Source: an uncultured Armatimonadia bacterium (GTDB lineage: Bacteria; Armatimonadota; Zipacnadia; CAVVLO01). Taken from it: DNA of 64,000 bases. The stretch covers positions 1 to 64,000 of the forward strand of contig CAVVLO010000003.1 of assembly GCA_963749155.1 (NCBI GenBank), in the 5' to 3' direction. Positions 31 through 42,702 of this stretch are shown here, one piece after another. The position numbers were made by a program, and so were the translations under genes. The notes under the pieces were generated by a model, which did not search any database, was not told the origin of the DNA, and was given only the letters and a program-made list of their open reading frames with translations. How positions within the stretch are numbered: position 1 is the stretch's first letter; each line of letters starts with the position of its first letter.

Positions 31-774
31 CTACTCCTTCACCACCACGCTAGCCGAGCGATCGAAGGGATTGATCCGCAGCGCCAGCGAGAAGAGATAG
101 GGATAGTTGGTCTTCAGATGCTGCATATAGGCCAGCCACTCGACCAGCAGGGCCGAATAAGCCCGTCCGATGTCCCCGCGCAGATGGCCGATATCAGAGG
201 GCGGCAGGGCATCGAAGCCCTCTCGGTGCACCAATTCCTCTGTCAGGTGGAAGACTGCCCATAGCAGGTCGGTAAAGGTGTCATGTTCGAGCAGATTTGG
301 GTTCTCGAGCAGCCTCAGCAAGAAGCCCCGACGCTCGGTGAGGAAGCCTTTAAGCGCTTGCAGGTCGAGGTCGGCTAGCTCGAGCTTCGGCTTATATGCG
401 GCCAGGTCAGTTCTTGTCGCAGCGAACTGCTCCGGCGTCCACTTGCCGGTGACGATGAGGCGCTCTCGCAGAGGTTCGACCGCCGCATCGGCGTCAGTGA
501 AGCGCACGAGCAGCTCCTCACCTACCTCACTGAAGAAGGCGCCGATGACCATATTGAGCTTCTGGAGCTTCTCCTTCTTGGCGCGTATGGCAAGCAGGCT
601 TTCCAGCACCAGGCTTACCATCAGCACTTCGATGAAAACGAAGGCGATATCGCCAATCAGATAGAGGAAGATGTGGTGAATATCTCGGAAGACAAGATAG
701 TGGACGTAATAGACCGCTCCTGAACAAACGATAAGTAATATCGCAAGCTTCAACTGCCATGAGATGGACTTCAT
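31..774 (-). CDS. Conserved hypothetical membrane protein (2 N-terminal TM helices)
   Basis: ORF 31..807; ATG at 774 (MKSISWQ) follows a GGGGGT RBS; hydrophobic N-terminus; TATAAT-like -10 upstream. Confidence 0.7.
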   Translation of the reverse strand: MKSISWQLKLAILLIVCSGAVYYVHYLVFRDIHHIFLYLIGDIAFVFIEVLMVSLVLESLLAIRAKKEKLQKLNMVIGAFFSEVGEELLVRFTDADAAVEPLRERLIVTGKWTPEQFAATRTDLAAYKPKLELADLDLQALKGFLTERRGFLLRLLENPNLLEHDTFTDLLWAVFHLTEELVHREGFDALPPSDIGHLRGDIGRAYSALLVEWLAYMQHLKTNYPYLFSLALRINPFDRSASVVVKE

Positions 775-825
775 CAGCTTACCCCCGAGCCAGTAGGCAA
801 GGACCATTATATAGGGTACGCGAGG

Positions 826-2585
826 CTAGTCCAGTTGTGCCGGGGCGGGTGGAGTCGCCTGAGGGGCTTCAATGCCCGCGATTAGCTGTGCAGCGGTCGC
901 GTTCTCTTTAGTGTGGTACCGCGCGGCGGGCCAGGTCGTAGCGAACGCGCAGACCAGCGCGAGCAAGGCCGTCACCAGCAACTGGTTGGAGGCCACTCGC
1001 CTGCGCTGGGGCTTGGGCAGCAGGCTGAGGAGGGCGTCTCGTTCCGCAGCCCTGCGCAGTAGCGGCCAGCAGGCGAGGTAGAGGGCGGCGCTCACGCACA
1101 GCACGGCGACGTCACCTCTGACCTCAGCTGCGTTGTTGAGCGGAAAGGAACTAATCAGCAACGGCATCAGCTGAAGCACTGCCGCAAGCTCCAGAAGCCC
1201 GTGGGATTCCGCGCGAAGCTTGGCGGTTCGGCCCCCCTGTTGAGCACCCCTCGCGAAAGAGCCCCCCTTCGGCCCCATCGCAAAGGCCATCGCCAGCACC
1301 ACCGACACTGCGGCAAAGATTAGGAGCGGCAGTATCAGGCGCAACGTGAAGGCCCACGGAGAGAGGTAATATGGGTCCAGCATGTCGGGCACTGGCAGAA
1401 GGGGCGCTATAAGCCACACCACCAGCCAGCTGGCTTGCAGGAGGTGAAAACCCTCGACGAAGGCCAGGGGGCCGAAGTGGCCCTTTGACGGGACTGGCGC
1501 CCCTGGAGAACCAGACAGCGAGCAGGAAAGCCAGGCCGGCAACCGCCACAAGCGCGAACGCCACCAAGAGGGCGCAGTACCTCAGGTTGCGGTAGACCTT
1601 CACTCCCAGCCCCAGTAGCGCTGTGTTGCACGTGCCAAGCGCAGCTCGTTTGGACGAGGCGCGGTCAGCTACGCGCTGCAGTGGTTCCTTCAAAGCCTCT
1701 GATATCCCCGCTCGCCCTGCCGCGGTGAGGCCGGCTCGCGCTGCCGTCCTGGCGCACAGGTACCAATCCAACTGCTCATCGTGAAGGCGACTGGCCCGCG
1801 CTAGTCCTTCATCACAGGACGCGAGGTGGGCGAAGAGTTGCGCTGCCCGGCCCGGCTGGCCGTTCTCCAGCATTGCCCACGCCGCCATACGCAGGGAACG
1901 GTTGAGCACATAACTGGTGTATGACGCTTCCCCTTCGCCACCCAGTTGGGCTGCAGCCCAGCGCATATCGTCTGGCCCCAGCAGCAGCCGCATCCCCTCG
2001 CGCAGCGCAAGCCTGGAGTAGCCAACCCAACTGTGTCTGCCTGGGGCACTTGCGCCTTTCTCAAGGCTGTGGAGCGCGGTGTCGGTCTCTCCCCTGGCGG
2101 CCTGGACCGTGGCTAGCACAAGGTGGAAGTAGCTCTCCTCTGGGAAGCGAGCAACTGCGGCTTTGGCCGCCTCGTAGAGCGGCTCCAAATGGCTTGCCTC
2201 GAGCTGCTCGCCGGTGGGAGGGTCTTTCAGCAGGGAGCGCAGCAGCTCGGCCCTGAGTGGCGCGTAGTCGGGAAAGCGTTTAACCAGCGGCAGCAGAGAG
2301 GGGGCCTGCAGGTTGTCCTCCGGATCGCTGGCGCAGAGCTGCAACCCCCACGCTTGCAGGGGTGTCAGGTCGCTGTGCGACAGCAGTGCAGCGGCCTGCT
2401 CGCGTGCGGATTTCGGCAGAGCGCCGGCGGCCCATCCCGCGCTAGCGCAGGGGCCACCCCGTGTCTCGGCGACCGCGTTCCATCCATCGTGTACCTCTCC
2501 CGCCCAGTCCCAGCCGAGGCCGGAGAGCTGGAGCAGAGCCATGATCAACGCCAAGCCGAGCACCAGCCAGCACAAAGAGCCGCAT
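826..2585 (-). CDS. Hypothetical membrane protein with helical/TPR-like domain and C-terminal TM helices (frameshifted)
   Basis: ORFs 1151..2575 and 826..1551 join at about 1545 into one continuous hydrophobic protein; ATG at 2585 with purine-rich RBS is 1 nt out of frame. Confidence 0.5.
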
Positions 2586-2702
2586 CCCTCTTCCCCACCT
2601 CCCTGCCACGCTCTAGACTTGTAAATCGTCTTCTACATCAGCAGGGGATTCCCGCTAGTTGAGGAAACCATAACAAAAGAAAGCCTTGGGAGGGCCGGGT
2701 AG

Positions 2703-5347
2703 ATGGCAACCAAGCCGAAATGGATTTGGCCAGAGGGTGATCGCGACGCAATAGACGTCCGCGCCTGGTTCAGGCGCACCTTCGATTTGCCCGCCAAACC
2801 CCTCAGAGCGACCCTCCATATCACTGCCAGTTATCGCTACCTTGTTTTCGTGAATGGCCACCGCCTCGGTCCAGGCCCCAACTTCGCCGATCCCCAGTAC
2901 CAGTATGTGGATGAGTGGGATATCACTCCCTTCCTGATTGCAGGCTCCAACTGCCTGGCAGTGATGGCGCATAATCTCGCTGTCGGCACCCACTACAGCC
3001 TCGCCCAGCCAGGAGGCCTCTGGGCCGAACTCGAACTCGATGTCCGGCACAATATGCAGGCGACCATCGTGACCGACTCGGCCTGGAAGACCCTCTCGCG
3101 CGGCCCGTATCTTTGGCCCGTGCCCCGCCAGTTCTGGACTGTAGACTTCCAGGAGCAGGTTGTCTGCTGCGAGGCGCCGAGTGGCTGGACCAGCGCGGGC
3201 TTTGATGACTCCGCCTGGGCACCCGCGCAAGAGCTAGGCGCAAGTCCGCTGGCGCCGTGGACAAAGCTTATCCCCAGGGAGATCCCCCCCCTGGCAATCA
3301 CGCCGCTCTGCACCCGCTCGACTGGTCGCCTCGGGCAGCTTTCTCCCGGTGGAAAACGCCTGGTTGCTGTCGGTAAGCCAACCTTCAGGAGAGGTGGGCT
3401 TTGAACTCGATCTGGAAGCCAAAGCCCCAGTCAGCGCGCCTCTTTGGCTGTCGGCTGATGACGAGTTCGAGCTGGAGCTTGGACGGTCAGCGGCTCGCGA
3501 GGCAGGGCTTCGATGAGGCTTTCGTCCACACGATGACCACCTACCATCGCAAGCTGGTAAAGGACGAATACCATCTGGGCGCCTGGTTCCCCGTCAGGAG
3601 CGTGCCCCTCAATCTGACCGCTGGACCTCATCGGCTGGTGTTGAAGCTGAAAGCCTGCCCTGACACCTGGGGCGCGCAGCTCCACCTGCCAGGGCCTCGA
3701 AGTCACTTCGCAGGGCGTCTGGCCGCGAAGCGTGGCACCTTGGAGCCTCTCCTGCCTGGGCCTGGACTGGTCCACGATGTGGCTTTGAGGCTGATGCGCG
3801 AACCGCTCAAGCTCTCCTTGAAGCCAACCCAGGTTGAATTGCCCCTCCTCCTGACCGCAGAGCGCAATGTGGTCGTGCTGGATATGGAAAAACTTGGCGT
3901 CGGCACCCTGAGGCTTGCCGGAGTCAGCCGCAGCAGAGGTTCACTGGACATCGCGTATGGCGAGGCGCTGGCGCCGGATGGCCGCGTAGATTGCATCCGC
4001 AACGCTATGAGCGTTGCCGACTCGCTCCATTTCACCTCGGGCCGGCGCAAGCATTTCGAGTGGGACTTCACCGGGCGCCGGGCTTTCCGGTATCTGCAAC
4101 TCGAAGCAACCGGTGGGCTGGAAGTCGCACTGGACGAGATCACTTTGTTCGACACGCGTTATCCGGTTGAGCCGTTGGGCTCTTTCCGCTCAGAGGATGA
4201 GCGCCTCTCGCGCATCTGGCAGGTCGGCGCTGATACCGTGTCGGCCTGTATGGGCGACAACTGGGAAGACTGCCCGACCCGCGAGCACGCCCAATATCCT
4301 GGCGATGCGTATGTGGAGTTCCCGATCGCGCTGTACGCCTTCGGCGACTTCGAGCTGTCCGCTAAAGGGCTGCGGCAGTTCGGCCGGAGCCTGTCGAAAG
4401 AGGGCTTCGTGAACGGGAGATGGCCTTCAAGTCATATCCTGCCCTGGCTGCTCAATTACGAACTGTTCTGGATCTCATGGCTGGCCGATCACGCGCGGTG
4501 GTCAGGCGATCTGGCGCTTGTGGAGAAGCTCTTCCCCGCCGTCCTGACGGTGCTGGCCTATCATCGCGGCTTCTACGATAACGATGGGCTGCTGAGAGTG
4601 CCAGGCAAGCTGACCTGGGAGCAGTTCACTGACCATCTGGACGTGGACTCCCGGGGCGAGGTGACAGGCCACCAGTGCAACTTCTACAAGGGGCTGCTGG
4701 ATGCGGCCTTCCTCGCCGAACTTGCGGGACATCCGGAAGAGGCGCGCCTGCTGAGGGACGAGGCGCTAGCCGTGCAAGAAGCTGCCTGGCGGTTGCTCTA
4801 CGTGCCTGAGAAGGGCCTGTATACCGATTGTCGCCTCGAAGGAGAGCCGTCCGAGGTGTTTACGCGACAGTCGAATTGCTGGGCCATCTGGAGCGGGCTG
4901 GCGCCTGAGGAGGCCTGGCAGGGCCTGTGGGAGGCGATGCAGAAAGCGTCGCTGCCGACCATCAAGAACCCCTGGAGCCAGTTCTTCGTGCTGGAAGCGA
5001 TGGCCAAACTCGGCCTGTACAGTGAGGCGCTTCCCCTCATTGAGGAATACTACGGTGGGATGCTCGACCGCGGCGCCATTACCTGGTGGGAGCTGTTCGA
5101 TCCTGCCTGGCCCGAGGACACGCAACCTGGGAGCCTGTGCCACGGGTGGAGCGGCGCGCCGACCTATTTCCTCTCGCGCCATATCGCCGGCGTGGACTGG
5201 CAGCTGGTCCCCGAGGCGAAGCTGCTGGTGACGCCGCATCCCGAGGGCTGGCCGCCCTTCCACGCGGAAGTCCCCACCCCGCTGGGCCTCGTGACTGTCG
5301 ATTGGGATGGCAACAAGGTGGCGATTAAAGCCCCCAGGCTCCTCTAG
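2703..5347 (+). CDS. Alpha-L-rhamnosidase family GH78 (frameshifts at about 3308 and 3480)
   Basis: N-terminal WIW..WFRRTFDL..YLVFVNG domain; DCPTREH-QYPGD, GAITWWELF and SLCHGWSGAP motifs typical of GH78. Confidence 0.85.
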
Positions 5348-5410
5348 CCCCTCGCCCCTGAGTGGCGCTTGTGCTATGCTTCCGGCGACCTCAGGACAGG
5401 AGTCGCCGCT

Positions 5411-6415
5411 ATGCTGAAGCGCTGGAATACTATCTTTATGACAGGTAACCTCCCCCCTGGCGAAGTCGCCGGGCCGGAGCTTGATCTCGTCTCCCGCTGG
5501 CTGCTCATTACGCGCTTCTGCGTGATGCCGATGACCCTCTTCGCAGGCCTCATCGGCGGCTTGCTGGCCCTCTATCAACGCGATGCAGTCGACTGGAGCG
5601 CCTGGACGCTTGCGGTAATCGGCTTGCTGCTTGCCCATATCACCAACAATATGGCCAACGACCTCCTGGACTGGTGGCAGGGCGTCGATACCGCGGACTA
5701 TCCGCGCGCAACTTATGCGCCCCATCCGATCCGTGACAAGCTCATCTCGCCAACTGGCCTGATAATCGCTGTGCTGGTGACCATCCTTGTGGATTTCCTC
5801 ATCGCGCTGGCACTAACCGAGCTGCGCGGCTGGCTCGTGATGGGCTTTGCCATCGCGGGTATTGTGCTCTCGCTCGGTTACGTCGCCCCGCCCCTCTCCC
5901 TCAAGCGCCGTGGCCTGGGCGAATTGGTCGTGCTAATCGTCTGGGGCCCGCTGATGATTGGAGGCGCCTACCTTTCCGCAACAGGTCACCTGCCCGGCTG
6001 GGTGCTCTGGGCCTCGCTGCCTTATGGCCTGCTGGTCACCTGCGTGCTGCTCGGCAAGCACATCGACAAGCTGGAATACGACCTGCCCAAAGGCGTCTAC
6101 ACGCTGCCGGTGCTGCTTGGAGACTCCACGGCGAGGCTTTTCACGCGCGGGGCGCTGGCGCTTTTCTTCCTGGTGACGGTGTTTGAGGTTGCCTTCGGAG
6201 TGCTGCCACTCGCTTGCCTGCTTGTGGTGTTGGGTTTGCCGCGGCTCATCCAGGTGGACAAGGCCTTCCAGAAGCCCAAACCTTACGAGCAGCCGGCAGA
6301 CGTGCCCATCTGGCCGCTCTGGTTCGCGGCCGCGGCCTTCCTCGTCGTGCGCGCAGGCGGCGGCGCCTTCGTGCTGGGATTGATACTGGGCGCCATCTGG
6401 CCGCTTAGTCTGTAA
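5411..6415 (+). CDS. menA: UbiA-family prenyltransferase, 1,4-dihydroxy-2-naphthoate octaprenyltransferase-like
   Basis: NDLLDWWQGVD and KHIDKLEYDLPKGVYTLPV motifs, LKRRGLGEL, multiple TM helices; AGGAG RBS before ATG 5411. Confidence 0.75.
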   Translation: MLKRWNTIFMTGNLPPGEVAGPELDLVSRWLLITRFCVMPMTLFAGLIGGLLALYQRDAVDWSAWTLAVIGLLLAHITNNMANDLLDWWQGVDTADYPRATYAPHPIRDKLISPTGLIIAVLVTILVDFLIALALTELRGWLVMGFAIAGIVLSLGYVAPPLSLKRRGLGELVVLIVWGPLMIGGAYLSATGHLPGWVLWASLPYGLLVTCVLLGKHIDKLEYDLPKGVYTLPVLLGDSTARLFTRGALALFFLVTVFEVAFGVLPLACLLVVLGLPRLIQVDKAFQKPKPYEQPADVPIWPLWFAAAAFLVVRAGGGAFVLGLILGAIWPLSL

Positions 6416-7253
6416 GCCAGGCTTCGTCCGCCGCGTTGGGTTCCAGGCCGACCTCGTCCAGCAGTCTCACATAACTGCCGATGAGCGCGTCCACCTTCTC
6501 CCAGGTCGTCTCATGCGTCGGGAAGACCTCGTAGTTGAAGGCCCCAGAATAACCAAGGCCAACGAGCTTCTCCATAAAGCCGTGCCAGTCGATTGTGCCC
6601 TCATAGGGCAGCCAGTGGCGCTCTACCCCATCGAAATCCGAGATATGCAGGTGGATGATACTCTCGCCGAGTTCATCCATCATCGGCAGCAAATCGGCCG
6701 GCTGGGGTGGATGGTTGGTGTCGAGGCAGATGCCGCAGTCTGACTGGGACAGGTCTTGCAGCAGATAGAACAACTCGTCCGGACAGTTGCCAAGGCAGGT
6801 GCGCGGCAGCAACTCCAGCGCCAGCCGAAGGCCTTTGGCTGCGAAAGCCTCGCCTACTCTGGTAATCGAATCTCTTGCGGCTTCGAGGCGCGCTTCTCGC
6901 TCGGCGGGTTCGACAGGTTCGGAGCTTGCGTGGACGACTATCAGGTCGCCGCCGAAACGCTCCTGCATCGCGAGGGAGTCCAGCACTACTTCGATTGAGT
7001 GCTCCCGGGCCTCGGTATCGAGCAGGGAGAGATCATAAGGGGTGCCAAAGGCGCTGTGGAGAGAGGCCACCTTCAGCCCCGTGTCCGCAAGCAAGCCCTC
7101 GATTGCCGCAAGCCAGCCCTCACTTCGCCAGCCAGGCTCATAGAAGAGTTCTCCCAGGGGCGGTTGAAGCGCCCGGATGTACTCCAGATGCGGCCCCGCC
7201 TGGGGCGTATCGACGAAACCAAAAGTATGCGAGAACCTGAAACTGGCTTCCAT
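6405..7253 (-). CDS. Sugar phosphate isomerase/epimerase (xylose-isomerase-like TIM barrel)
   Basis: LALELLP, CLDTNH, HLHISD, HWLPYEGTIDW and FNYE metal-binding pattern. Confidence 0.85.
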   Translation of the reverse strand: MEASFRFSHTFGFVDTPQAGPHLEYIRALQPPLGELFYEPGWRSEGWLAAIEGLLADTGLKVASLHSAFGTPYDLSLLDTEAREHSIEVVLDSLAMQERFGGDLIVVHASSEPVEPAEREARLEAARDSITRVGEAFAAKGLRLALELLPRTCLGNCPDELFYLLQDLSQSDCGICLDTNHPPQPADLLPMMDELGESIIHLHISDFDGVERHWLPYEGTIDWHGFMEKLVGLGYSGAFNYEVFPTHETTWEKVDALIGSYVRLLDEVGLEPNAADEAWLTD

Positions 7254-7281
7254 TTATGGGTCTCCTGTAATAACAACTTAG

Positions 7282-10035
7282 TCAGTCAGAAGTGGGCCGA
7301 TACACCTGCTGGCGATATTGCTCGAGCCTGAGCAGCACGCCAGACAGGAAACTATAATCGTGCGACAGGCTGCCTTCGTATTCGGTGGGCCTGCCCTGCC
7401 AGTCCGAGATGGATGACCCAGTGCCTGGCACATTTGTCACGCCGGTCTGGAATCCTCCCCCGTTGGGGAAATATCCCTCCTCCTGGCGCTTCAGCATCGA
7501 CTGGAGGAGGAGTTCGGCTTTGGCGTCTTCGCCGATGCGCCAAAGGGCAATCATCACGCGCACCGCGTCCTCGGTGAAGACCCCGCCATTACAGTAGGTG
7601 GGAAAAGTATCTGAGCCGTCCTCACTTTGCCCTCCGAACGAGGCAAACTGGTCGTCGCGTCTCACCGGGACCAGGTTGTTGGGCACGCCCACGCTGAAGC
7701 AGTCGAAGCCGACCTCCTCCAGTTTGGTCCAAAGCCTGGCCATAACTTCTCGGGCAAGAGGCAAGTCGAGGACGTGACACTCAACCGCGACAGCATTTAC
7801 CACCAGGGCAGCATAATCGTGCAACTGGCCATCTGCGCTCCGCCACCAACCCAGCCAGCCAGTAGCTGGATTCATAAAACAAGGCTCATAGGCGGCCTTC
7901 AGGCGCTTGGCCAGCGCGCGCCACTGCTGGGCGTCACTTTCACGCCCCATACGGGCCTCCAGGTCGGCAAGGCAGAGCCAGCCGCGGTAACTGAGCGCAT
8001 TGGTCAAGGCGTTCTTGTGCCCGCTGCTGATGGTGTCCATATAAGTATCGCCGAAGAGCTTCGTGCCCGTATTACCGCTCTGGCGAGATTCTATAAGGCC
8101 ATCGCCATCCTCATCTCGAGTTGCCATATAACTCGCAACCAGTTCGAGCCGGGGTAGCCAGTGGGCCAGCCAGTCTTCATCGTCTGTCGCCTCGACATAA
8201 GCCCAGGCGCCCATCAGAATCGAGGGATTGGAATCGGCCATATGGCCGCCTCCACCAGGCACGTAGAAGACATACCCCTCCTCAGAGCAACCCCTCGTCA
8301 GCCAGTATTCAAGCGAACGGCGCACGACTGCGGTCGCCGAGACCCCAGGGGCCAGTTCCGGCACCACTAGCATTGGATCGGAATAGCAGTAGAAGAGCGA
8401 ACTCACCGGATCGCTGATGACATTGTTGGAAAGCAACCCGCCTGGCGCGCCTCCGAAGGAAGCCTCGGGGGGCCACTCGGCACTAACCTGGTACAGGTTG
8501 AACCAGCCTCTGCGCGCGATACGCCAGAGCTCAGGGGCGACTCCCTCAGGCCTGGGCAACACCACCTGGTCGAAGCGCAGGCTGCAACTGGACTTTGCCT
8601 CACCAAGCGGAAGGCGGAGAGAGACATCAACTCGTTTGCCTGGGCGGCTGCCAGTTAGCCAACCTGTGGCCTTGGGCTCCTCCTTGCAGGTAACGAGCAT
8701 TTGCCCGCAGTCAGGCGCCGAGACGATAGCGGGCAGTTGGAACTCGCCCCCCTCCCTCCAGTCCTCGGCGATGAGGCTTGTAGCTGTAGTCGACGGGTCG
8801 AAAGGCAACAAGAGGCGCAGTTCATCAGGCGCTGGCCCCCCTTGTAGGCGGAAACTCCAGGTCAGGCCCTTGTCGCGCAGGCCAACTCGCCACTCGAGCC
8901 AGGCTTCTCCTCGCAGTGGAATCTGGTATACAACAGCGGAAGCTGACTGCTGGGGCGGGCAAACAACCGAGCCGGTATCAAGCCACTCCTCTCCGTAGCG
9001 CGCCAAAATCCGGGCAGGCTCGCGCAAGAGATTCAGCCGGGCCTGGTCGCCTCCCTCGGTATCCCAGCCAAGCGCAGTAAGGCACGGCGCCTCTGGCGAG
9101 GCTTCAATCCGAAGGGCAACGGCCGGGGTATCTTCGGCAGAGGGCATATCGGCAATTCCTCCAGGTGGATAGACCAATCTTAGCGGAGGCTTGGGCAGTG
9201 GGAAAGGCCCAGCCAGCACCAAGCCTGCGGGCGCGCGCACTTCGGTACCACGGCGGGTCCAGAGTATGCCCCCCTGCGGGTCGAGGTACATAACAAGCTG
9301 TGCGCCCAGATCACTGACGAACAGTCCATCTTCTTTTGAGAAGGCAAGCCAGGCAGGGCTCTTCAATCCAAGTGAAGGGCCAGCCAGCACTTTATCTCCG
9401 ATGCGGACGGCGCCATCGCTACCACTCACCACGACCTCTCCGCCTGGCATCGCCCCGATACCCCAGGGGGCGCAACCTGCTGGAAGAGGAGTTGAGGCTC
9501 CTTTTTCGCCGGATGGCAGGTTGAAGCTAAGCACTACGCCTTCGGAAAAGTCAGGCACATAAAGCTTGTCTTGTGCGACCAGCAATTGGGTCAAACGGCC
9601 TGGGCCTGGGTTTGCAAGGTCCCTCAACCACTGGCCTGTAACAGCGTCATAACATTTGAGGACTCCGTCGTCATAGGAGGCTACGATAAGCCACTCTCGC
9701 CAGAGGGCCATCCCCATCGGGCGCAGCAGGCTTCCGGGCTGGCCGCGGGTTGGGGGGATGAAGTCTCCAAGGTAGCTGCCCGTGGCGCTGTCAAAGCGAC
9801 GCACGCTGCCTGGCTGGCCCGAAGCGCCACAAGAGACAAGCAAGTCACCCTTCGGCGCCAGAGCGAGCCCATTTGGGGTTGGCAGAGTCGAGGCTAATGT
9901 ACCGAGCCAGGCGCCAGTGGTGGCCTCGTAGCGTTCGAGCTTGCCTGAACCGGTCATTGCTACGACTAGCTCCTGGGGTGTCGACCAGGCCTGAGTAGCC
10001 AGGAGTAATCCCAGTATTGCCATTAGTGTTCTCAA
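7282..10035 (-). CDS. Secreted beta-propeller (NHL/Vgb-like) plus (alpha/alpha)6 glycoside hydrolase fusion
   Basis: Signal peptide; repeats RYEATTGAWLG / RFDSATGSYLGDF / YDAVTGQWL; C-terminal RDEDGDGLIE, NALSYRG, YCNGG. Confidence 0.65.
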   Translation of the reverse strand: MRTLMAILGLLLATQAWSTPQELVVAMTGSGKLERYEATTGAWLGTLASTLPTPNGLALAPKGDLLVSCGASGQPGSVRRFDSATGSYLGDFIPPTRGQPGSLLRPMGMALWREWLIVASYDDGVLKCYDAVTGQWLRDLANPGPGRLTQLLVAQDKLYVPDFSEGVVLSFNLPSGEKGASTPLPAGCAPWGIGAMPGGEVVVSGSDGAVRIGDKVLAGPSLGLKSPAWLAFSKEDGLFVSDLGAQLVMYLDPQGGILWTRRGTEVRAPAGLVLAGPFPLPKPPLRLVYPPGGIADMPSAEDTPAVALRIEASPEAPCLTALGWDTEGGDQARLNLLREPARILARYGEEWLDTGSVVCPPQQSASAVVYQIPLRGEAWLEWRVGLRDKGLTWSFRLQGGPAPDELRLLLPFDPSTTATSLIAEDWREGGEFQLPAIVSAPDCGQMLVTCKEEPKATGWLTGSRPGKRVDVSLRLPLGEAKSSCSLRFDQVVLPRPEGVAPELWRIARRGWFNLYQVSAEWPPEASFGGAPGGLLSNNVISDPVSSLFYCYSDPMLVVPELAPGVSATAVVRRSLEYWLTRGCSEEGYVFYVPGGGGHMADSNPSILMGAWAYVEATDDEDWLAHWLPRLELVASYMATRDEDGDGLIESRQSGNTGTKLFGDTYMDTISSGHKNALTNALSYRGWLCLADLEARMGRESDAQQWRALAKRLKAAYEPCFMNPATGWLGWWRSADGQLHDYAALVVNAVAVECHVLDLPLAREVMARLWTKLEEVGFDCFSVGVPNNLVPVRRDDQFASFGGQSEDGSDTFPTYCNGGVFTEDAVRVMIALWRIGEDAKAELLLQSMLKRQEEGYFPNGGGFQTGVTNVPGTGSSISDWQGRPTEYEGSLSHDYSFLSGVLLRLEQYRQQVYRPTSD

Positions 10036-19272: not shown

Positions 19273-19887
19273 TTAAGGCTTATAGAGCACCCAAAGCCGG
19301 CAACTGTCCTTATGCAACTCGGTTATGGTTAGCCACTTCGCGTGCCCATCACAGTAGGCCAGGTTGGACCCTTCGAAATGCGCCGGCCTTACCCAGCCTG
19401 GATCTATCCACGGGCCAGGCAGCGGGATAGTCGAACAATAGTCAGGATTCGGCTCTACCACCCAGTCTCCGTCCCGGTTTTCGCCCAGCAGCAAAGTCTC
19501 GGCAGGTTGGCTTATCTGGGCCAGGGGCAAGGAGAAATACACTTCTCCGATGTAAGCGTTGATGCCATAGGGGCTGGTGCCGTTCGGCCTGTTGAGGTTG
19601 GCTGGCGCAGACGGGCAGGAGTAGATGCCTTCGTTCTTCACATAGGGCAGCGTAATGTATTTCCAGCAGTGTTCCCACCAGTCGCCAAACTGGGCTGGAG
19701 GCAGCGTGTCATCGTAGTCCTGGGCATACATCATTATGCCCATCCCAAGCTGTTTCAGGTTGGAGGTGCAGGTGCTCTGGCGCGCCTTCTCCTTGGCTCT
19801 GGAGAAGACCGGAAACAGGATAGCCGCAAGGATGGCGATAATTGCGATGACAACAAGCAACTCGATAAGCGTGAACCCTCGTCGCAT
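19273..19887 (-). CDS. Prepilin-type N-methylation / DUF1559 / H-X9-DG protein
   Basis: [45 protein letters not shown]. Confidence 0.92.
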
Positions 19888-19917: not shown

Positions 19918-20938
19918 CTAGTGCGAGCCCGCCTTCAGCTTCATCTGATCTACTATAACTGCCAGCAGTATGACCGCGCCTTTGACAAGCCACTGGTAGA
20001 ACTCGTCCACGCCAATCAGAGTAAGGCCATTATTCAACACGCCGATGATAAGCGCGCCCAGCACGGTGCCCTGGATGGTGCCAATGCCCCCAAGAAAGCT
20101 GGTGCCTCCAAGCGCGACGGCGGCGATGGCGTTAAGCTCGTACATCTGCCCCAGCTTCGGGTCGCCTGAACCGAGTTCGACTGCTCATTATGATACCCGC
20201 AACGCCGGCCAGCAGACCGGACATCAGGTAGATTTTTAGTTTTACTTTCGGGATATCTATACCTGAAAGGCGCGCTGCCTGTTCATTACCGCCGATGGCA
20301 TAGGTATAACGGCCAAAGGAGGTGCGCGCAAGCAGCACCCAGCCGAAGATCGCCCCGGCCAGGCCTATCAGGGCCGGCACGTGCAGCACTGGGTCTATCA
20401 CCTTCCCCAGGCCGAAGACGCCATATTCGGCGGGGAGATTCGAGACAGGCTGGGCATCGCACATCAGGAAGGCCACCCCGCGCGCTATGCTCATCATCGC
20501 AAGGGTTGCGATGAAGGGCGGCAGGCTGAACTTGTTGATCATCACCCCGTTGAAGGCTCCAAGCGCCGCAGCGGCCAGCAGGCCAATCGGTATCGCAATG
20601 AACAGCATAACGCCAGGCTCCAGCACCGGCAGGATTACCAAAGACTGGCTTCCAATCGGGATTGCAAGGCCGTGCTTGAGCAGCGAGGTCACCAGCACCG
20701 CGGTGAAGGCCAGTATGGAGCCAACCGACAAGTCTATACCCGCCGAGATGATGACGAACGTCATCCCCACCGCTATCAGCAGGTTTATCGAGATGTCCGA
20801 GAGGATGTTGCCCACATTGCCCGCCGAGATGAAGCAATGCTTGTTGGTCGTCAAAGTGAAAACCACGACCAGTATCAGCAGGAAGATTGCGCTGCTGTAG
20901 CTTTCAAGCAAGCGCTTCGACCGATCAAGGAAGCTCAT
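19918..20938 (-). CDS. Monosaccharide ABC permease, RbsC-like (frameshift at about 20175)
   Basis: [20 protein letters not shown]; the C-terminal [13 protein letters not shown] lies in a second frame. Confidence 0.9.
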
Positions 20939-22473
20939 TCGCCTTCCTCCATCAGGGGATTTACTCCACCCGTTGCCAGGTGCATAATGCGCTCCTGGGT
21001 GGCCTCTTCGCGCGCCAGTTCGCCGGCGATGCGCCCCTGGTGCATCACGAGGATGCGGTCACTCATCCCCAGCACTTCGGGCAGTTCGCTCGAAATCATA
21101 ATGACGGCTTTCTGATGCTTCACCAGCTCGTTCATCAGATTGTAGATTTCGGCCTTTGCGCCTACATCAATGCCACGCGTCGGCTCATCGAAAATCAGCA
21201 CCTGCGAATTGGTGAAAAGCCATTTGGCAAGGACTACCTTCTGTTGGTTGCCACCGGACAGGTCTTTCGTGCGCCGCTCGGGATAAGGCGGCCTCAGGCC
21301 AAGCTGCTCGATGTACCGTTTGGCGACCTCTTGCTCTTTGCCAAGCGACAGCAGGCCCATATTGCGTATCTCGTCCAGGTTGGCGAGGGTCATATTCTCG
21401 CGCACAGCCAGTTCGAGGATCAGTCCCTGCAGCTTGCGGTCCTCCGGCACCAGTCCGATGCCCAGGTCGATGGCATCGCGCGGGCAGCGGATGGTAACTT
21501 CCTCGCCCCCCACATAGATGCGCCCTTCCTCCACCGGGTCGGCGCCGAAAATCGCTCTGGCAAGTTCGGTGCGCCCCGCGCCAACCAGGCCGGCGATACC
21601 GAGGATCTCCCCCTCAAACACCGCGAGGCTTATGTGTTCCAGCACGCCAGCGCGCTCGAAGCCAGCGATCCGCAGCAACTCTTTGCCAGGTTTCACCGCG
21701 ATTTTGGGCATCTGCTCGGACAGCTCGCGCCCGACCATATGCTTAATCAGCGAGTTGCGATCCAGATTTTTCACATAATCTGTCACCACATGCTGGCCAT
21801 CGCGCAGCACGGTACAGCGGTCGGCTATCTCGAACAGCTCTTCAAGCCGATGAGAGATATAGATAATGCTGACGCCCTTCGCCTTAAGCTGGCGGATCTG
21901 ATTGAAGAGGTTCTCCAGTTCATGTTCGGTAAGGGCGGCCGAGGGCTCGTCCATTACGAGGATACGCGCGTCCTGACTTAGCGCTTTGGCTATCTCGACG
22001 AGTTGCTGATTGGCCACACTGAGTTCTCTAACCAGTGTTTTGGGATTGATTGGCGCCTCCAGCAGGTCAAGCCACTCGCGCGCCTGCTGCCAAAGGGCGC
22101 GATAGTCCATCAGGCCAAATTTGGTGCGCGGCTCGCGCCCCAGGAAGATGTTCTCGGCAACGCTCATATCGGGCACCAGGTTGAATTCCTGGTATATGAT
22201 GGCGACGCCGTGGCGTAATGCAGCCTGGGGAGAGGCGATGGTGACTGGCTGACCTTCGATTAGAAGCTGTCCGGCATCCGCCAGATGGGCGCCGGCGAGG
22301 ATCTTCACCAGCGTGGATTTGCCCGCGCCGTTTTCTCCAACGAGGCCAAGTACCTCGCCGCGCCCAAGTTGCAGGGTAACATCGCTAAGCGCCTGCACAC
22401 CTGGGAAGGCCTTCGATATATCGCGCATCTCAAGCAGGAAAGCGGGCTCCTGCGCTACCTGTTCGGCTGTCAT
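20935..22473 (-). CDS. Monosaccharide ABC ATPase, RbsA-like (two NBDs)
   Basis: GENGAGKS, MDEP, LSGGNQQKV, FDEPTRGIDVG. Confidence 0.95.
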   Translation of the reverse strand: MTAEQVAQEPAFLLEMRDISKAFPGVQALSDVTLQLGRGEVLGLVGENGAGKSTLVKILAGAHLADAGQLLIEGQPVTIASPQAALRHGVAIIYQEFNLVPDMSVAENIFLGREPRTKFGLMDYRALWQQAREWLDLLEAPINPKTLVRELSVANQQLVEIAKALSQDARILVMDEPSAALTEHELENLFNQIRQLKAKGVSIIYISHRLEELFEIADRCTVLRDGQHVVTDYVKNLDRNSLIKHMVGRELSEQMPKIAVKPGKELLRIAGFERAGVLEHISLAVFEGEILGIAGLVGAGRTELARAIFGADPVEEGRIYVGGEEVTIRCPRDAIDLGIGLVPEDRKLQGLILELAVRENMTLANLDEIRNMGLLSLGKEQEVAKRYIEQLGLRPPYPERRTKDLSGGNQQKVVLAKWLFTNSQVLIFDEPTRGIDVGAKAEIYNLMNELVKHQKAVIMISSELPEVLGMSDRILVMHQGRIAGELAREEATQERIMHLATGGVNPLMEEGE

Positions 22474-22534
22474 ATGCTGCCCCTCAAACTGGGATAGCCC
22501 TTAATGCGACGCTGGCATCCAGATTCCTTCCCAT

Positions 22535-22573
22535 AAAAAAGCCCCGGTCCGGGTGGCGTGCCCGGATCGGGGC
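22535..22573 (-). terminator. Intrinsic terminator after the riboswitch-controlled DUF1559 gene
   Basis: GC-rich stem (GCCCCGATCCGGG / CCCGGACCGGGGC) followed by six T on the minus strand. Confidence 0.8.
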
Positions 22574-22596
22574 CAGGGGGAGTGCCTTGGTCAGAT

Positions 22597-23322
22597 TTAC
22601 TGCAGGTCGTAGAGCGAGTCGTCCTCTGACAGACTGCCGAACTTCTCACTCGTGCCAGGCTGCAGGTTGTAGATTTTGCTTGTCGCCTTCACGTGCCCGT
22701 CACAGAAAGCTACGCCCGCTGTTTCATTGTGGCGGAAATGCGCGGTAGCCCAGGGGAAAAGCCAGTCGCTGGGCGCGCGCAGATAGTTGGTTGCGGCAAC
22801 AGAGCCTGCGTTATTGTAGGCAGCATCGGCCAGCAAGACGGTCTCGGAGGGCTTGCCCACCGCCCCCAGACTGACAGGTTCAGGCACTGGCTCATACATC
22901 CCGTGACCGATATAGGTGGTGTTGTAAGCGTAGCCGGATTGCGGCCTGCCCCAGGTCTCCCCCTGGAAGGTTGGACACGCGTTGATTTGCTGGTTCTTGG
23001 TATAGGGCGCAATCAGGCCAGGGCCGGTGACGCCTCCCGCGCTCCAGTCGATGCTGAAGTCCCAGGCGAATTCGTTCCAGGCAGCGTCGTAGTAGTAGGC
23101 GGGGCAATAGCGTTCGTCATAATCCTGAGCGTACATCATAATCCCAAGAGAGATCTGTTTGAGGTTGGAGAGGCAGGTGGACTGACGCGCCTTCTCTCTG
23201 GCGCGCGCGAAAACAGGGAACAGGATGGCTGCCAGGATGGCGATGATGGCGATGACGACCAGCAGTTCGATGAGCGTGAAACCGGCGTGTTTACGTCTGA
23301 AACGAGGTGCAATACAAAACAT
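22597..23322 (-). CDS. Prepilin-type N-methylation / DUF1559 / H-X9-DG protein, B12-riboswitch controlled
   Basis: [36 protein letters not shown]. Confidence 0.92.
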
Positions 23323-23362
23323 AAAATAACCCTCCCTGCCCGCGCAGGAGCGTATTTGGTAG

Positions 23363-23502
23363 GCAGATTGGGCCGTCTCCTGACTTCTGGATCTTCCTCG
23401 GGTCGCGTCTTCCGGGTTTACCCGTGACTCTTGCGGCCTTCGTCCCCAGTTACAGTTGCGGGGCAGTCGCGGCTTCTCACCGCGTTCCGATACCCTTTCT
23501 GC
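23363..23502 (-). promoter_or_regulatory. Cobalamin riboswitch
   Basis: Minus strand reads GGAA-CGCGGTGAGAAGCCGCG-ACTGCCCCGCAACTGTAA ... GTCACGGG..GGAAG ... AAGTCAGGAGACGGCC (B12 box), closed by a GCAGA/TCTGC P1 stem. Confidence 0.92.
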
Positions 23503-23524
23503 TTCCAGTATTCAATTGAGGCTT

Positions 23525-23553
23525 ATGCTAACTGATGCTTTCCGGTGAGTCAA
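23525..23553 (-). promoter_or_regulatory. Sigma70-type promoter for the riboswitch transcript
   Basis: TTGACT-N17-TAGCAT about 20 nt upstream of the riboswitch. Confidence 0.55.
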
Positions 23554-23563
23554 GACTTCCCTG

Positions 23564-24305
23564 TCAGGAAGTTCGCCAGGCCTGGACTGCATGCGTGATC
23601 TCGATGACAGGGGCTATCCAGAACCGCTTGCGATGCTTGGCAAGGTGTTGCAGCAGCAATTCGAAGTCTACCTGCGAGACTGGCAGATGGCCTTCATCAA
23701 TACCGTGGAAGGTCAGTATCCCCCACTGGCCGCGGTTTGCGAAGAGTTCGCAAGTGCCAATCAGCTCGGCGGCGTTCATCCGCTCGCAGGGGTAGCTCCA
23801 CAAGTAATGGAGGTCTGCCCTTGTGAGCGAAATTGCCTCCCTCGCCCCTCGTGCGGGCCGCTGAGCAATACTTGGCAACGACGGGGGTATAGCTTTGGCG
23901 ATTCAGCCCTACACCGATGTCCGACTGGTAGCAGGGATAGGCAAAAGAGCGCGCTGTCTGATGAGGCGCAAGCTGGGCCAGGCGCTCTTCAGCCTCGGCT
24001 ATCTCGCGTTCCATCGCCTCGAGGCTAAGCCCCTCGATGCCCTCATGCTCCGCCGTGAAACTGAAGTTGCGCGAGCAGGGATGATTGACCGTATGGTTGC
24101 CCAGCTCATGCCCCCTTCGGGACGCCATCGCCCAGGGCAGCAGGCGCTCGGCCCAGTCGGCCCCGTTGGGATTCAGGTAGAAGGTGCCATTGAAGCCATA
24201 CTTCTCGAGCAGTGGCACCGCAAGCTTGAGCTGAGAAGCCAGCCCATCATCAAAAGTCAGGCAGAGAGCTGCTTCCGCGCCCTCTGGCAGCCAGGGAGAA
24301 GCCAT
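23564..24305 (-). CDS. Polysaccharide deacetylase (CE4-like; frameshift at about 23830)
   Basis: LTFDDG, GHELGNHTVNH, FAYPC; WGILTFHG in the second frame. Confidence 0.85.
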
Positions 24306-42049: not shown

Positions 42050-42451
42050 GCAGGAGTGGGTCGCGGGTCCGCGCTCGGCAAGTTGCCGGGTGAGGAAAGT
42101 CCGGACTCCACAGGGCAGGGCGCTGGATAACATCCAGGCGGCGCAAGCCGACGGAAAGTGCAACAGAAAGCAGACCGCCTAAGCCCCTTCGGGGGCCGGT
42201 AAGGGTGAAACGGTGGGGTAAGAGCCCACCAGTTGCTGTGGCGACACGGCAAGCTGGGTAAACCCCGCTCGGAGCAAGGCCAAATAGGAAGGGGCGCCTG
42301 GCAGGTCCAGGCTAGGGTCTGCCCGACCCGACGCCTTCGGGTTGGCCGCAAGAGGCGCTTCGCAAGAAGCGTCCCAGATAAATGGACTCGGCCCGGACCC
42401 CTTGATTGGGGCTCCGCGAGCACAGAATCCGGCTTACAGACCCACTCCTGC
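42050..42451 (+). ncRNA. rnpB: RNase P RNA (bacterial type A)
   Basis: GAGGAAAGTCCGGACTC, AGTGCAACAGAAA, GGGTAAACCCC, ACAGAATCCGGCTTA; P1 GCAGGAGTGGGTC/GACCCACTCCTGC; TGCTACAAT extended -10 just upstream. Confidence 0.97.
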
Positions 42452-42702
42452 TCTATCTGACAGCTTAACCGACCAGCGATCACCTCGAACTAGCGGGGGT
42501 GCGGGGGCACTGCCCCCGCGCTGTTCTGTAGCCTTTCCCTGATGTTTCAGTTTCCTGACCCCAGGTCAGGTCGTTCCTGATACCTGGACATGCCGGTCCT
42601 GTTGCGTGAGGGGGTCTAGGCCACTCCTGTCCTATAACCAGGCCTCTGCTCCTTGCCCTCCGGATATTTCCGAAGAGTAAATCTTTCGCAAACCTTTGCC
42701 CT

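Follow-up and report, generated by a model that had tools for sequence, protein, structure and literature searches.

A cobalamin riboswitch upstream of a pilin-like DUF1559 gene in Armatimonadota and its probable link to corrinoid scavenging

Known systems and the Armatimonadota locus

Cobalamin (vitamin B12) riboswitches of the Rfam family RF00174 usually control btuB/btuFCD, cob/cbi, cobalt transport genes, or genes for B12-independent isozymes. In the usual design of these elements, the ligand occupies the B12 box, a sequestor hairpin closes, and translation stops. Here I describe a member of this family whose target, a pilin-like DUF1559 gene, lies outside the usual target classes. The locus lies in the first 64,000 nucleotides (nt) of contig CAVVLO010000003.1 (assembly GCA_963749155.1) of an uncultured Armatimonadia bacterium; this whole 64-kb stretch is called the window below. 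Judged from sequence comparison, the linkage of the riboswitch to DUF1559 genes is conserved and specific to one clade of these proteins, and the window protein probably helps to scavenge B12. No prior report of a link between a B12 riboswitch and a pilin or DUF1559 gene was found in the literature searched, with subscription journals and supplements lying outside that search.

The closest working analogues are the BtuH/BtuG/BtuB relay of Bacteroides and the archaeal bindosome, and the window protein belongs to neither family. In Bacteroides, B12-riboswitch loci encode accessory surface B12-binding proteins, as described in passages of PMC8941943 and PMC10404256. The loci studied here resemble this relay at the fold level only, through the BtuH-like partner protein of three relatives (loci L003, L005, and L008), and differ from it in that the operons of the clade have no BtuB (TonB-dependent) or BtuG; the pilin-like protein stands there. 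In the Sulfolobus bindosome, sugar-binding proteins carry class III signal peptides and are assembled by the Bas system, according to the relevant part of PMC3047682. The bindosome is the nearest precedent for a pilin-type leader on a nutrient-capture protein with assembly like that of the type IV pilus (T4P), in working principle rather than in family; it is archaeal and uses ordinary solute-binding folds of ATP-binding cassette (ABC) systems, while no solved structure is related to the DUF1559 head. GspG/PulG and the type IV pilins share with the window protein the G-1, F+1, E+5 leader and a long hydrophobic helix whose structure matches, but the DUF1559 head is about twice as large and has no structural match beyond the helix. 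The competence pseudopilus (T4P DNA uptake) is the one established case known of a pilin-based filament importing a substrate across the envelope; its substrate is DNA and it lacks riboswitch control, so it serves as an analogy only.

All the elements of the riboswitch-gene unit lie on the minus strand, as listed below in the order of transcription; the hairpin is proposed to cover the ribosome-binding site (RBS), and the coding sequence (CDS) is followed by a terminator.

23525..23553 (-), sigma-70-like promoter TTGACT-17-TAGCAT with 9/12 consensus matches
23354..23512 (-), cobalamin riboswitch aptamer RF00174 (Rfam, 88.0 bits, E 2.2e-20)
23377..23382 (-), CAGGAG in the B12-box region, an inferred candidate anti-sequestor complementary to CUCCUG (computed duplex -11.4 kcal/mol)
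23332..23350 (-), RBS-sequestering hairpin CUCCUGC-GCGG-GCAGGGAG, followed by a U-rich stretch (local fold -9.8 kcal/mol)
23330..23336 (-), Shine-Dalgarno sequence GGGAGGG, paired within the 3′ arm of the hairpin and separated by 7 nt from the ATG at 23322
22597..23322 (-), pilin-like CDS of 241 amino acid residues (aa) with N_methyl, DUF1559, and H-X9-DG matches
22534..22574 (-), intrinsic terminator with a 13-bp GC-rich stem and U6 (-30.9 kcal/mol)

Apart from the candidate anti-sequestor, these are the parts that the first-pass annotation had read from the letters of the DNA, together with the lack of any btuB, btuF, or cob gene, and each of them was recovered. The RF00174 match far exceeds the gathering score of 31.5 bits, spans model positions 1-189 of 189 without truncation, and keeps the conserved core intact, so that the element belongs to the family by its covariance score. 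With a full aptamer, a B12-box region, and an RBS hairpin directly 3′ of it, the element resembles RF00174 riboswitches with a translational platform, of which it is a member by sequence. It lies in the 5′ leader on the strand of the gene, and the expression platform is present; the sequestor hairpin starts 4 nt after the aptamer end at 23354. Since CAGGAG is complementary to CUCCUG and the RBS is held in the hairpin, the proposed off-switch fits the usual design of B12 elements. A pattern scan also listed the sequestor hairpin as terminator-like (tail AGGGTTATTT), and because a U-rich stretch comes after it, some transcriptional effect is possible. The terminator at the end of the gene (stem 22574..22540, U-tract 22539..22534) was missed by the simple pattern scan because the stem is bulged. 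Promoter-like sites numbered two in the region versus 0.4 +/- 0.8 in shuffled sequences, which is weak evidence when taken alone. Together, these features support the prediction that B12 switches off a pilin-like gene that forms a monocistronic unit.

The encoded protein consists of a prepilin leader, a long N-terminal helix, a DUF1559 head domain, an H-X9-DG motif (H198-x9-D208-G209), and a clade-specific C-terminal tail. The prepilin site is canonical, with G14|F15 at -1/+1, E19 at +5, and a hydrophobic N-terminal helix, as in class III leaders. The matches to N_methyl (40.4 bits, cut-off 21.2) and to the NCBIfam prepilin domain TIGR02532 (33.5, cut-off 16.3) are clear; that to DUF1559/PF07596 (39.9 bits, cut-off 23.3) covers just profile positions 2-46 of 268, and that to the NCBIfam H-X9-DG model TIGR04294 is marginal (19.6, cut-off 19). 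The N-terminus also matches the GspG, GspH, and PilA models. Against the GspG equivalog TIGR01710, however, the protein scores 35.0 bits, well short of the cut-off of 88.85, and matches over the N-terminal 54 residues only. From its sequence, the window protein is thus pilin-like or pseudopilin-resembling and not a GspG orthologue.

An AlphaFold2 (AF2) model built with 47 sequences has a predicted local distance difference test score (pLDDT) of 91.2 and a predicted template modelling score (pTM) of 0.82. It consists of a 50-residue N-terminal helix (residues 17-67, pLDDT about 95) and a mainly beta head domain. A Foldseek search of the PDB gave a best E of 0.14 and matched the helix alone, to FimA and to the PAK, gonococcal, and Thermus pilins. 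One NCBI homologue record bears the title "DUF1559 family PulG-like putative transporter"; a transport role has thus already been guessed at in NCBI naming.

Vitamin riboswitches and DUF1559 genes in relatives

Is the linkage found in relatives of the window gene? The first-pass annotation had named this as a test of its reading. A genome-contig scan provided 77 loci with DUF1559 paralogues among the matches listed (420,697 nt). These loci mostly carry distant paralogues, with 28-44% identity over the full length and 28-72% over the best segment. They hold 94 pilin-like DUF1559 genes, 89 of which have at least 300 nt of upstream sequence. At the Rfam gathering thresholds, three RF00174 riboswitches and one thiamine pyrophosphate (TPP) riboswitch were found at these loci:

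L005, Phycisphaerae, cobalamin riboswitch, 70 bits
L008, Chthoniobacteraceae, cobalamin riboswitch, 47.1 bits
L036, Ca. Kuenenia, cobalamin riboswitch, 87.3 bits
L065, Chthonomonadales, TPP riboswitch (RF00059), 71.9 bits

All four lie upstream of a DUF1559 gene and on its strand, for which the chance is (1/4)^4 = 0.004 if place and strand are random. The test thus came out in favour of the linkage, with three relatives carrying RF00174 and two of these in the clade of the window protein. Since the four cobalamin riboswitches, including that of the window, have a mean column identity of only 57%, the linkage does not represent one recently transferred cassette. A permissive Rfam scan of eight riboswitch-less loci that are near the clade or top-ranked by E-value revealed no riboswitch. 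In L036, a promoter and terminator scan of the 193-nt gap was negative. After the DUF1559 gene of this Ca. Kuenenia locus comes a gene (1669-3978) for a membrane protein of 769 aa whose C-terminus is YfhO-like.

A phylogenetic tree was built with the IQ-TREE quick search under LG+G4. Its 100 rows are made up of 86 pilin-like genes that are complete in the loci, two from the window, and 12 close database homologues. The window protein, the 12 homologues, and the proteins of L005, L008, and L003 form one clade with a support of 97 in the Shimodaira-Hasegawa-like approximate likelihood ratio test (SH-aLRT). The 12 homologues are in the clade by construction, as they were chosen for closeness, while the placement of L005, L008, and L003 is a real result. 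Within the clade, RF00174 is found upstream and on the same strand in the window, L005, and L008; the 12 homologues come without genomic context and do not enter this count. With the window seed left out, riboswitches are linked to two of the three clade loci and to one of the 83 outside (Fisher p = 0.0024). L003 is no counter-example but simply uninformative, because its 2,140-nt contig, which has the gene order of L005, ends before the expected place of the riboswitch; about 2 kb separate the L005 riboswitch from the pilin-like gene downstream of it, and the equivalent place in L003 is off the contig. The L003 contig is labelled as part of a Hyphomonadaceae (Pseudomonadota) bin, and both its genes are closest to the Phycisphaerae locus L005; this short contig was probably mis-binned.

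The clade has conserved residues of its own, including Y76, Y77, D88, Y133, Y137, R182, and F196, and a C-terminal tail, LSxDDSAYDL, which the window protein carries. Of the 120 closest database homologues, 103 match a loose pattern of the tail, and the remaining 17 look by eye like near-variants. In the locus-derived part of the tree (86 rows), only L003, L005, and L036 have the tail; L008 has a degenerate form.

It was found that the pilin-like gene is directly preceded in L003, L005, and L008 by a partner gene. The gene orders of the two riboswitch-bearing loci and the coordinates of the partner gene are as follows:

L005: cobalamin riboswitch, open reading frame (ORF) 1327-1920, ORF 1979-2929, pilin-like gene 2974-3828
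L008: cobalamin riboswitch, PEP-CTERM protein, ORF 2191-2994, pilin-like gene 2998-3762, small ORF, ZnuA-type binding protein, outer-membrane channel (Phenol_MetA_deg), ABC ATPase
Partner gene: L003 150-1325, L005 1979-2929, L008 2191-2994

The L008 genes form one string on one strand with short gaps. In this string, the region 4299-6638 (ZnuA-type protein, Phenol_MetA_deg channel, and ABC ATPase) may serve cobalt or metal uptake as a module of this operon. The three partner genes are mutually homologous (E 2e-24 for L003 and L005; 5e-5 and 4e-4 for the other pairs), and no homologue was found by tblastn in the window or in the other 74 loci. The partner family has 181 database members, all unnamed, and no Pfam domain was found in it beyond the dockerin or PEP-CTERM sorting tails. 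Because the members bear dockerin, PEP-CTERM, or VPLPA-CTERM tails, they are read as surface or secreted proteins. An AF2 model of the L005 partner protein (40 sequences; pLDDT 91.8, pTM 0.85) has three top PDB matches, 8BLW_B (E 1.4e-6), 7BIZ_B (E 3.9e-5), and 7BIZ_A (E 1.1e-4), with a probability of 1.00; the next match has only an E of 0.011. In the passages concerned, PMC8941943 presents 7BIZ as BtuH2 with bound B12 and describes the B12-binding domain of BtuH2 as having "no known structural homologs". According to the corresponding part of PMC10404256, 8BLW is BtuB1G1, in which a BtuH domain is fused to BtuG1 (chain B). BtuH is a proven binder of B12 at the cell surface. The modelled partner protein of L003, L005, and L008 thus seems to be BtuH-like at the fold level only. 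A methionine-synthase match of the partner family (E 0.94) was rejected as noise.

A second vitamin riboswitch appears, from sequence, to control another DUF1559 paralogue, alongside a salvage kinase and an inner-membrane carrier. The L065 unit spans 57-3178 and has the following order:

L065: promoter TTGACG-17-TATAAT, TPP riboswitch 102-212, terminator-like hairpin, DUF1559 gene 316-1059, thiamin pyrophosphokinase (TPK), SSF-family Na+:solute symporter (its ORF overlaps the kinase ORF)

In Bacteroides, a thiamine locus, OMthi-PnuT-TPK, is under a TPP riboswitch. L065 resembles it in having a TPP riboswitch, an envelope component, TPK, and an inner-membrane transporter, and differs from it in that a DUF1559 protein replaces the TonB-dependent transporter and the carrier is of the SSF family. 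The content of the L065 operon favours an uptake role over secretion or adhesion.

Corrinoid scavenging and the alternatives

The BtuH-like partner gene and the TPP-linked paralogue in a thiamine salvage or uptake operon both point to vitamin acquisition. I consider it moderately probable that the pilin-like protein is a B12-repressed component of corrinoid scavenging. When the cell has enough B12, the riboswitch would let the hairpin close over the RBS, and translation would be off; when B12 is scarce, CAGGAG of the B12 box would be available for pairing with the anti-RBS strand, and expression would follow. A prepilin peptidase encoded elsewhere would cleave the leader. The mature protein would then either remain in the inner membrane, with its N-terminal helix as the anchor, or become part of a short pseudopilus via machinery of the T4P type or of the type II secretion system (T2SS) type. 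The head domain may capture a corrinoid, or take it over from BtuH-type surface binders, and the corrinoid would be passed inwards to an inner-membrane transporter. The protein would thus fill the functional place of BtuB/BtuG in Proteobacteria and Bacteroidota. The first-pass annotation had gone as far as a corrinoid or cobalt capture subunit displayed on a pilus or pseudopilus. The regulatory part of that proposal stands and has gained pointers to vitamin acquisition, while corrinoid binding or relay, pilus display or filament assembly, import along the pilus, and the mechanism of the off-switch itself are inferred.

Several observations weigh against corrinoid scavenging. Folding the 96-nt platform with one or the other pairing imposed gave -19.2 kcal/mol for the RBS-sequestered state and -17.9 kcal/mol for the anti-sequestor state, a difference of only 1.3 kcal/mol, and the computed anti-sequestor fold still had the RBS paired, elsewhere. 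The Foldseek search of the PDB found no solved relative of the head domain, so no ligand-binding fold can be named; no solute-binding protein of the bindosome kind was among its structural matches, and a search of the ESM Atlas with residues 60-241 matched unnamed clusters only. The likeness of the partner protein to BtuH goes with low TM-scores by query (0.29-0.31) and a root-mean-square deviation of about 13 A. A profile built from 40 partner-family sequences found neither 7BIZ nor 8BLW at E<=1. In the window, tblastn found no BtuH-like gene, so the pilin-like gene stands alone here, and a Pfam scan of 55 ORFs, hand-picked from the 105 window ORFs of at least 150 aa, found no T2SS, T4P, or B12 transporter gene. 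The comparison set is small, and its loci are not a random sample but were chosen for their likeness to the window protein; no orthologue with more than 50% full-length identity and a genomic context was among the matches listed. The support of the tree is SH-aLRT alone, with many long branches. For L001, which of the rows outside the clade is nearest to it, a scan at a permissive threshold found no riboswitch within 3 kb, and L036 has both the riboswitch and the tail, yet is placed with Planctomycetota paralogues (SH-aLRT 95).

Could the protein serve export instead? It is rather unlikely that it is a specialised pseudopilin for T2SS-like secretion or display of B12-scavenging surface proteins, made when B12 is scarce and never touching B12 itself. 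Such a role would agree with the general knowledge that pseudopilins are secretion pistons, with the fit of the N-terminus to the GspG, GspH, and PilA models, and with the position of the gene after the secreted or sorted proteins of L003, L005, and L008 with their dockerin, PEP-CTERM, and VPLPA-CTERM tails. A secretion role is also proposed, in one part of PMC13274419, for a T2SS beside a pulG-like paralogue in an alginate cluster. Neither the window gene nor that of L036 has a secreted partner in its operon, however, and the TPP-linked paralogue has a kinase and an inner-membrane symporter beside it, which stand for uptake and salvage and leave nothing to secrete; it would also be hard to explain why the export of every cargo should require a separate pilin paralogue. 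Decidedly less likely is a role as an adhesin or surface-remodelling subunit for which B12 scarcity is a cue, for example for attachment to B12 producers, or a chance linkage without meaning. Dozens of DUF1559 paralogues per genome make some chance adjacency to riboswitches expected, and type IV pilins are classic adhesins, but the linkage clusters in a single clade that has a conserved tail of its own, four of the four riboswitches are upstream on the strand of the gene, and the co-operonic functions match the ligand, a BtuH-like protein with B12 and TPK plus a symporter with TPP.

That the protein takes part in B12-repressed acquisition of cobalt or another metal, with the His and Asp of H-X9-DG as the metal site, has only a slim chance. 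The motif is family-wide, including TPP-linked and unlinked paralogues, and cannot set the specificity; the conserved partner is BtuH-like, i.e., like a corrinoid binder; and no metal-uptake genes lie nearby in L003, L005, L036, or the window. Cobalt capture in place of corrinoid capture is thus less likely, and it is kept as a rival because the riboswitch-led string of L008 reaches the ZnuA-type metal-binding protein, the Phenol_MetA_deg channel, and the ABC ATPase; it is also general knowledge that B12 riboswitches control cobalt transporters. It is scarcely credible that the riboswitch is a relic, dead or acting elsewhere, and that the gene is expressed independently of B12. An 88-bit match over the full model with an intact core, an aptamer that ends 4 nt before a hairpin covering the RBS, and the lack of any gene between the riboswitch and the CDS argue against it, as does the separateness of the upstream gene (23697..24305), the intergenic gap containing the promoter-like site. 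What speaks for a relic is the weak promoter match (9/12) and the minimum-energy fold of the whole leader, which did not reproduce the Rfam aptamer structure (z = -0.04) and is not counted as evidence here. B12-repressed corrinoid scavenging remains the reading that I prefer.

The neighbourhood and the DUF1559 family

In the 64-kb window, Rfam matched two RNAs, namely the cobalamin riboswitch, which is the only riboswitch, and a bacterial RNase P RNA of class A (42053-42452 (+), 309.8 bits) with insertions relative to the model. Among the 55 scanned ORFs, Pfam (E<=1e-5) found no cobalamin or cobalt family, in agreement with the lack of btuB, btuF, and cob genes mentioned above, and no prepilin peptidase, assembly ATPase, or assembly platform. 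The downstream neighbours of the pilin-like gene are the following:

20132-22473 (-), ribose/xylose-type sugar ABC ATPase, then permease

With 268 aa, matching profile positions 16-251 of 321, the permease is short, and no solute-binding-protein gene adjoins these two genes. Their control by the riboswitch through read-through was considered and rejected, given the strong terminator and their ribose/xylose-type identity. A second DUF1559/H-X9-DG gene (19273-19887 (-), 204 aa) sits 245 nt downstream of them and has neither a riboswitch nor the clade tail. The regions 2703-10035 and 40181-63564 hold many glycoside hydrolases and related genes, including rhamnosidases, GH116, GH127, GH57, GH99-like, GH43-like, fucosidase, sulfatase, and pectate-lyase-like enzymes; this enzyme set is the profile of a polysaccharide degrader.

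Among the 77 loci, DUF1559 paralogues often occur side by side. L069, on a Planctomycetaceae chromosome, has five in tandem on one strand (2998-7068), and tandem copies also exist in L014, L077, L056, L004, and L053. The further Rfam matches over these loci are two tRNAs and four Acido-Lenti-1 motifs (RF01687). The latter are four tandem copies at the gathering score in L055 (5832-6611, Kiritimatiellota). In L011 (Armatimonadia), the motif occurs three times below the threshold (453-499, 3722-3768, and 4644-4690), and one of these copies directly follows a DUF1559 stop codon.

Where PMC10632474, PMC2754498, and PMC13274419 mention DUF1559, they present a large family without an assigned function. 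The relevant passages give 68 paralogues, two of them essential, for Planctopirus limnophila (PMC10632474), 74 for Rhodopirellula baltica (PMC2754498), and 67 for V. alginivorum, which has a pulG-like paralogue within its alginate cluster (PMC13274419). In Planctomycetes, pilin-like filaments were seen binding dextran, as reported in a part of PMC5394234. It is tentatively proposed, as a possibility with well under an even chance, that the DUF1559/H-X9-DG families of Planctomycetota, Verrucomicrobiota, Armatimonadota, and their allies represent a modular pilin-based system of nutrient capture, a bacterial counterpart of the bindosome with one substrate per paralogue and a shared T2SS/T4P-like machine. 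If this is true, some clades would be tuned to corrinoids, some to thiamine, and others to sugars or polysaccharides, and the system would replace the work of TonB-dependent receptors and periplasmic binding proteins.

On the same proposal, individual paralogues would receive their first ligand-specific labels from the vitamin riboswitches. Few paralogue families of these phyla are larger than DUF1559, and since a riboswitch names the ligand, the question of function becomes an experimental one. If the head domains bind B12 or thiamine, a vitamin-uptake route of these phyla would be revealed, the dextran-binding pilin-like filaments of Planctomycetes would gain a function, and a new gene class would join the B12 regulon that is used for predicting vitamin dependence in microbial communities.

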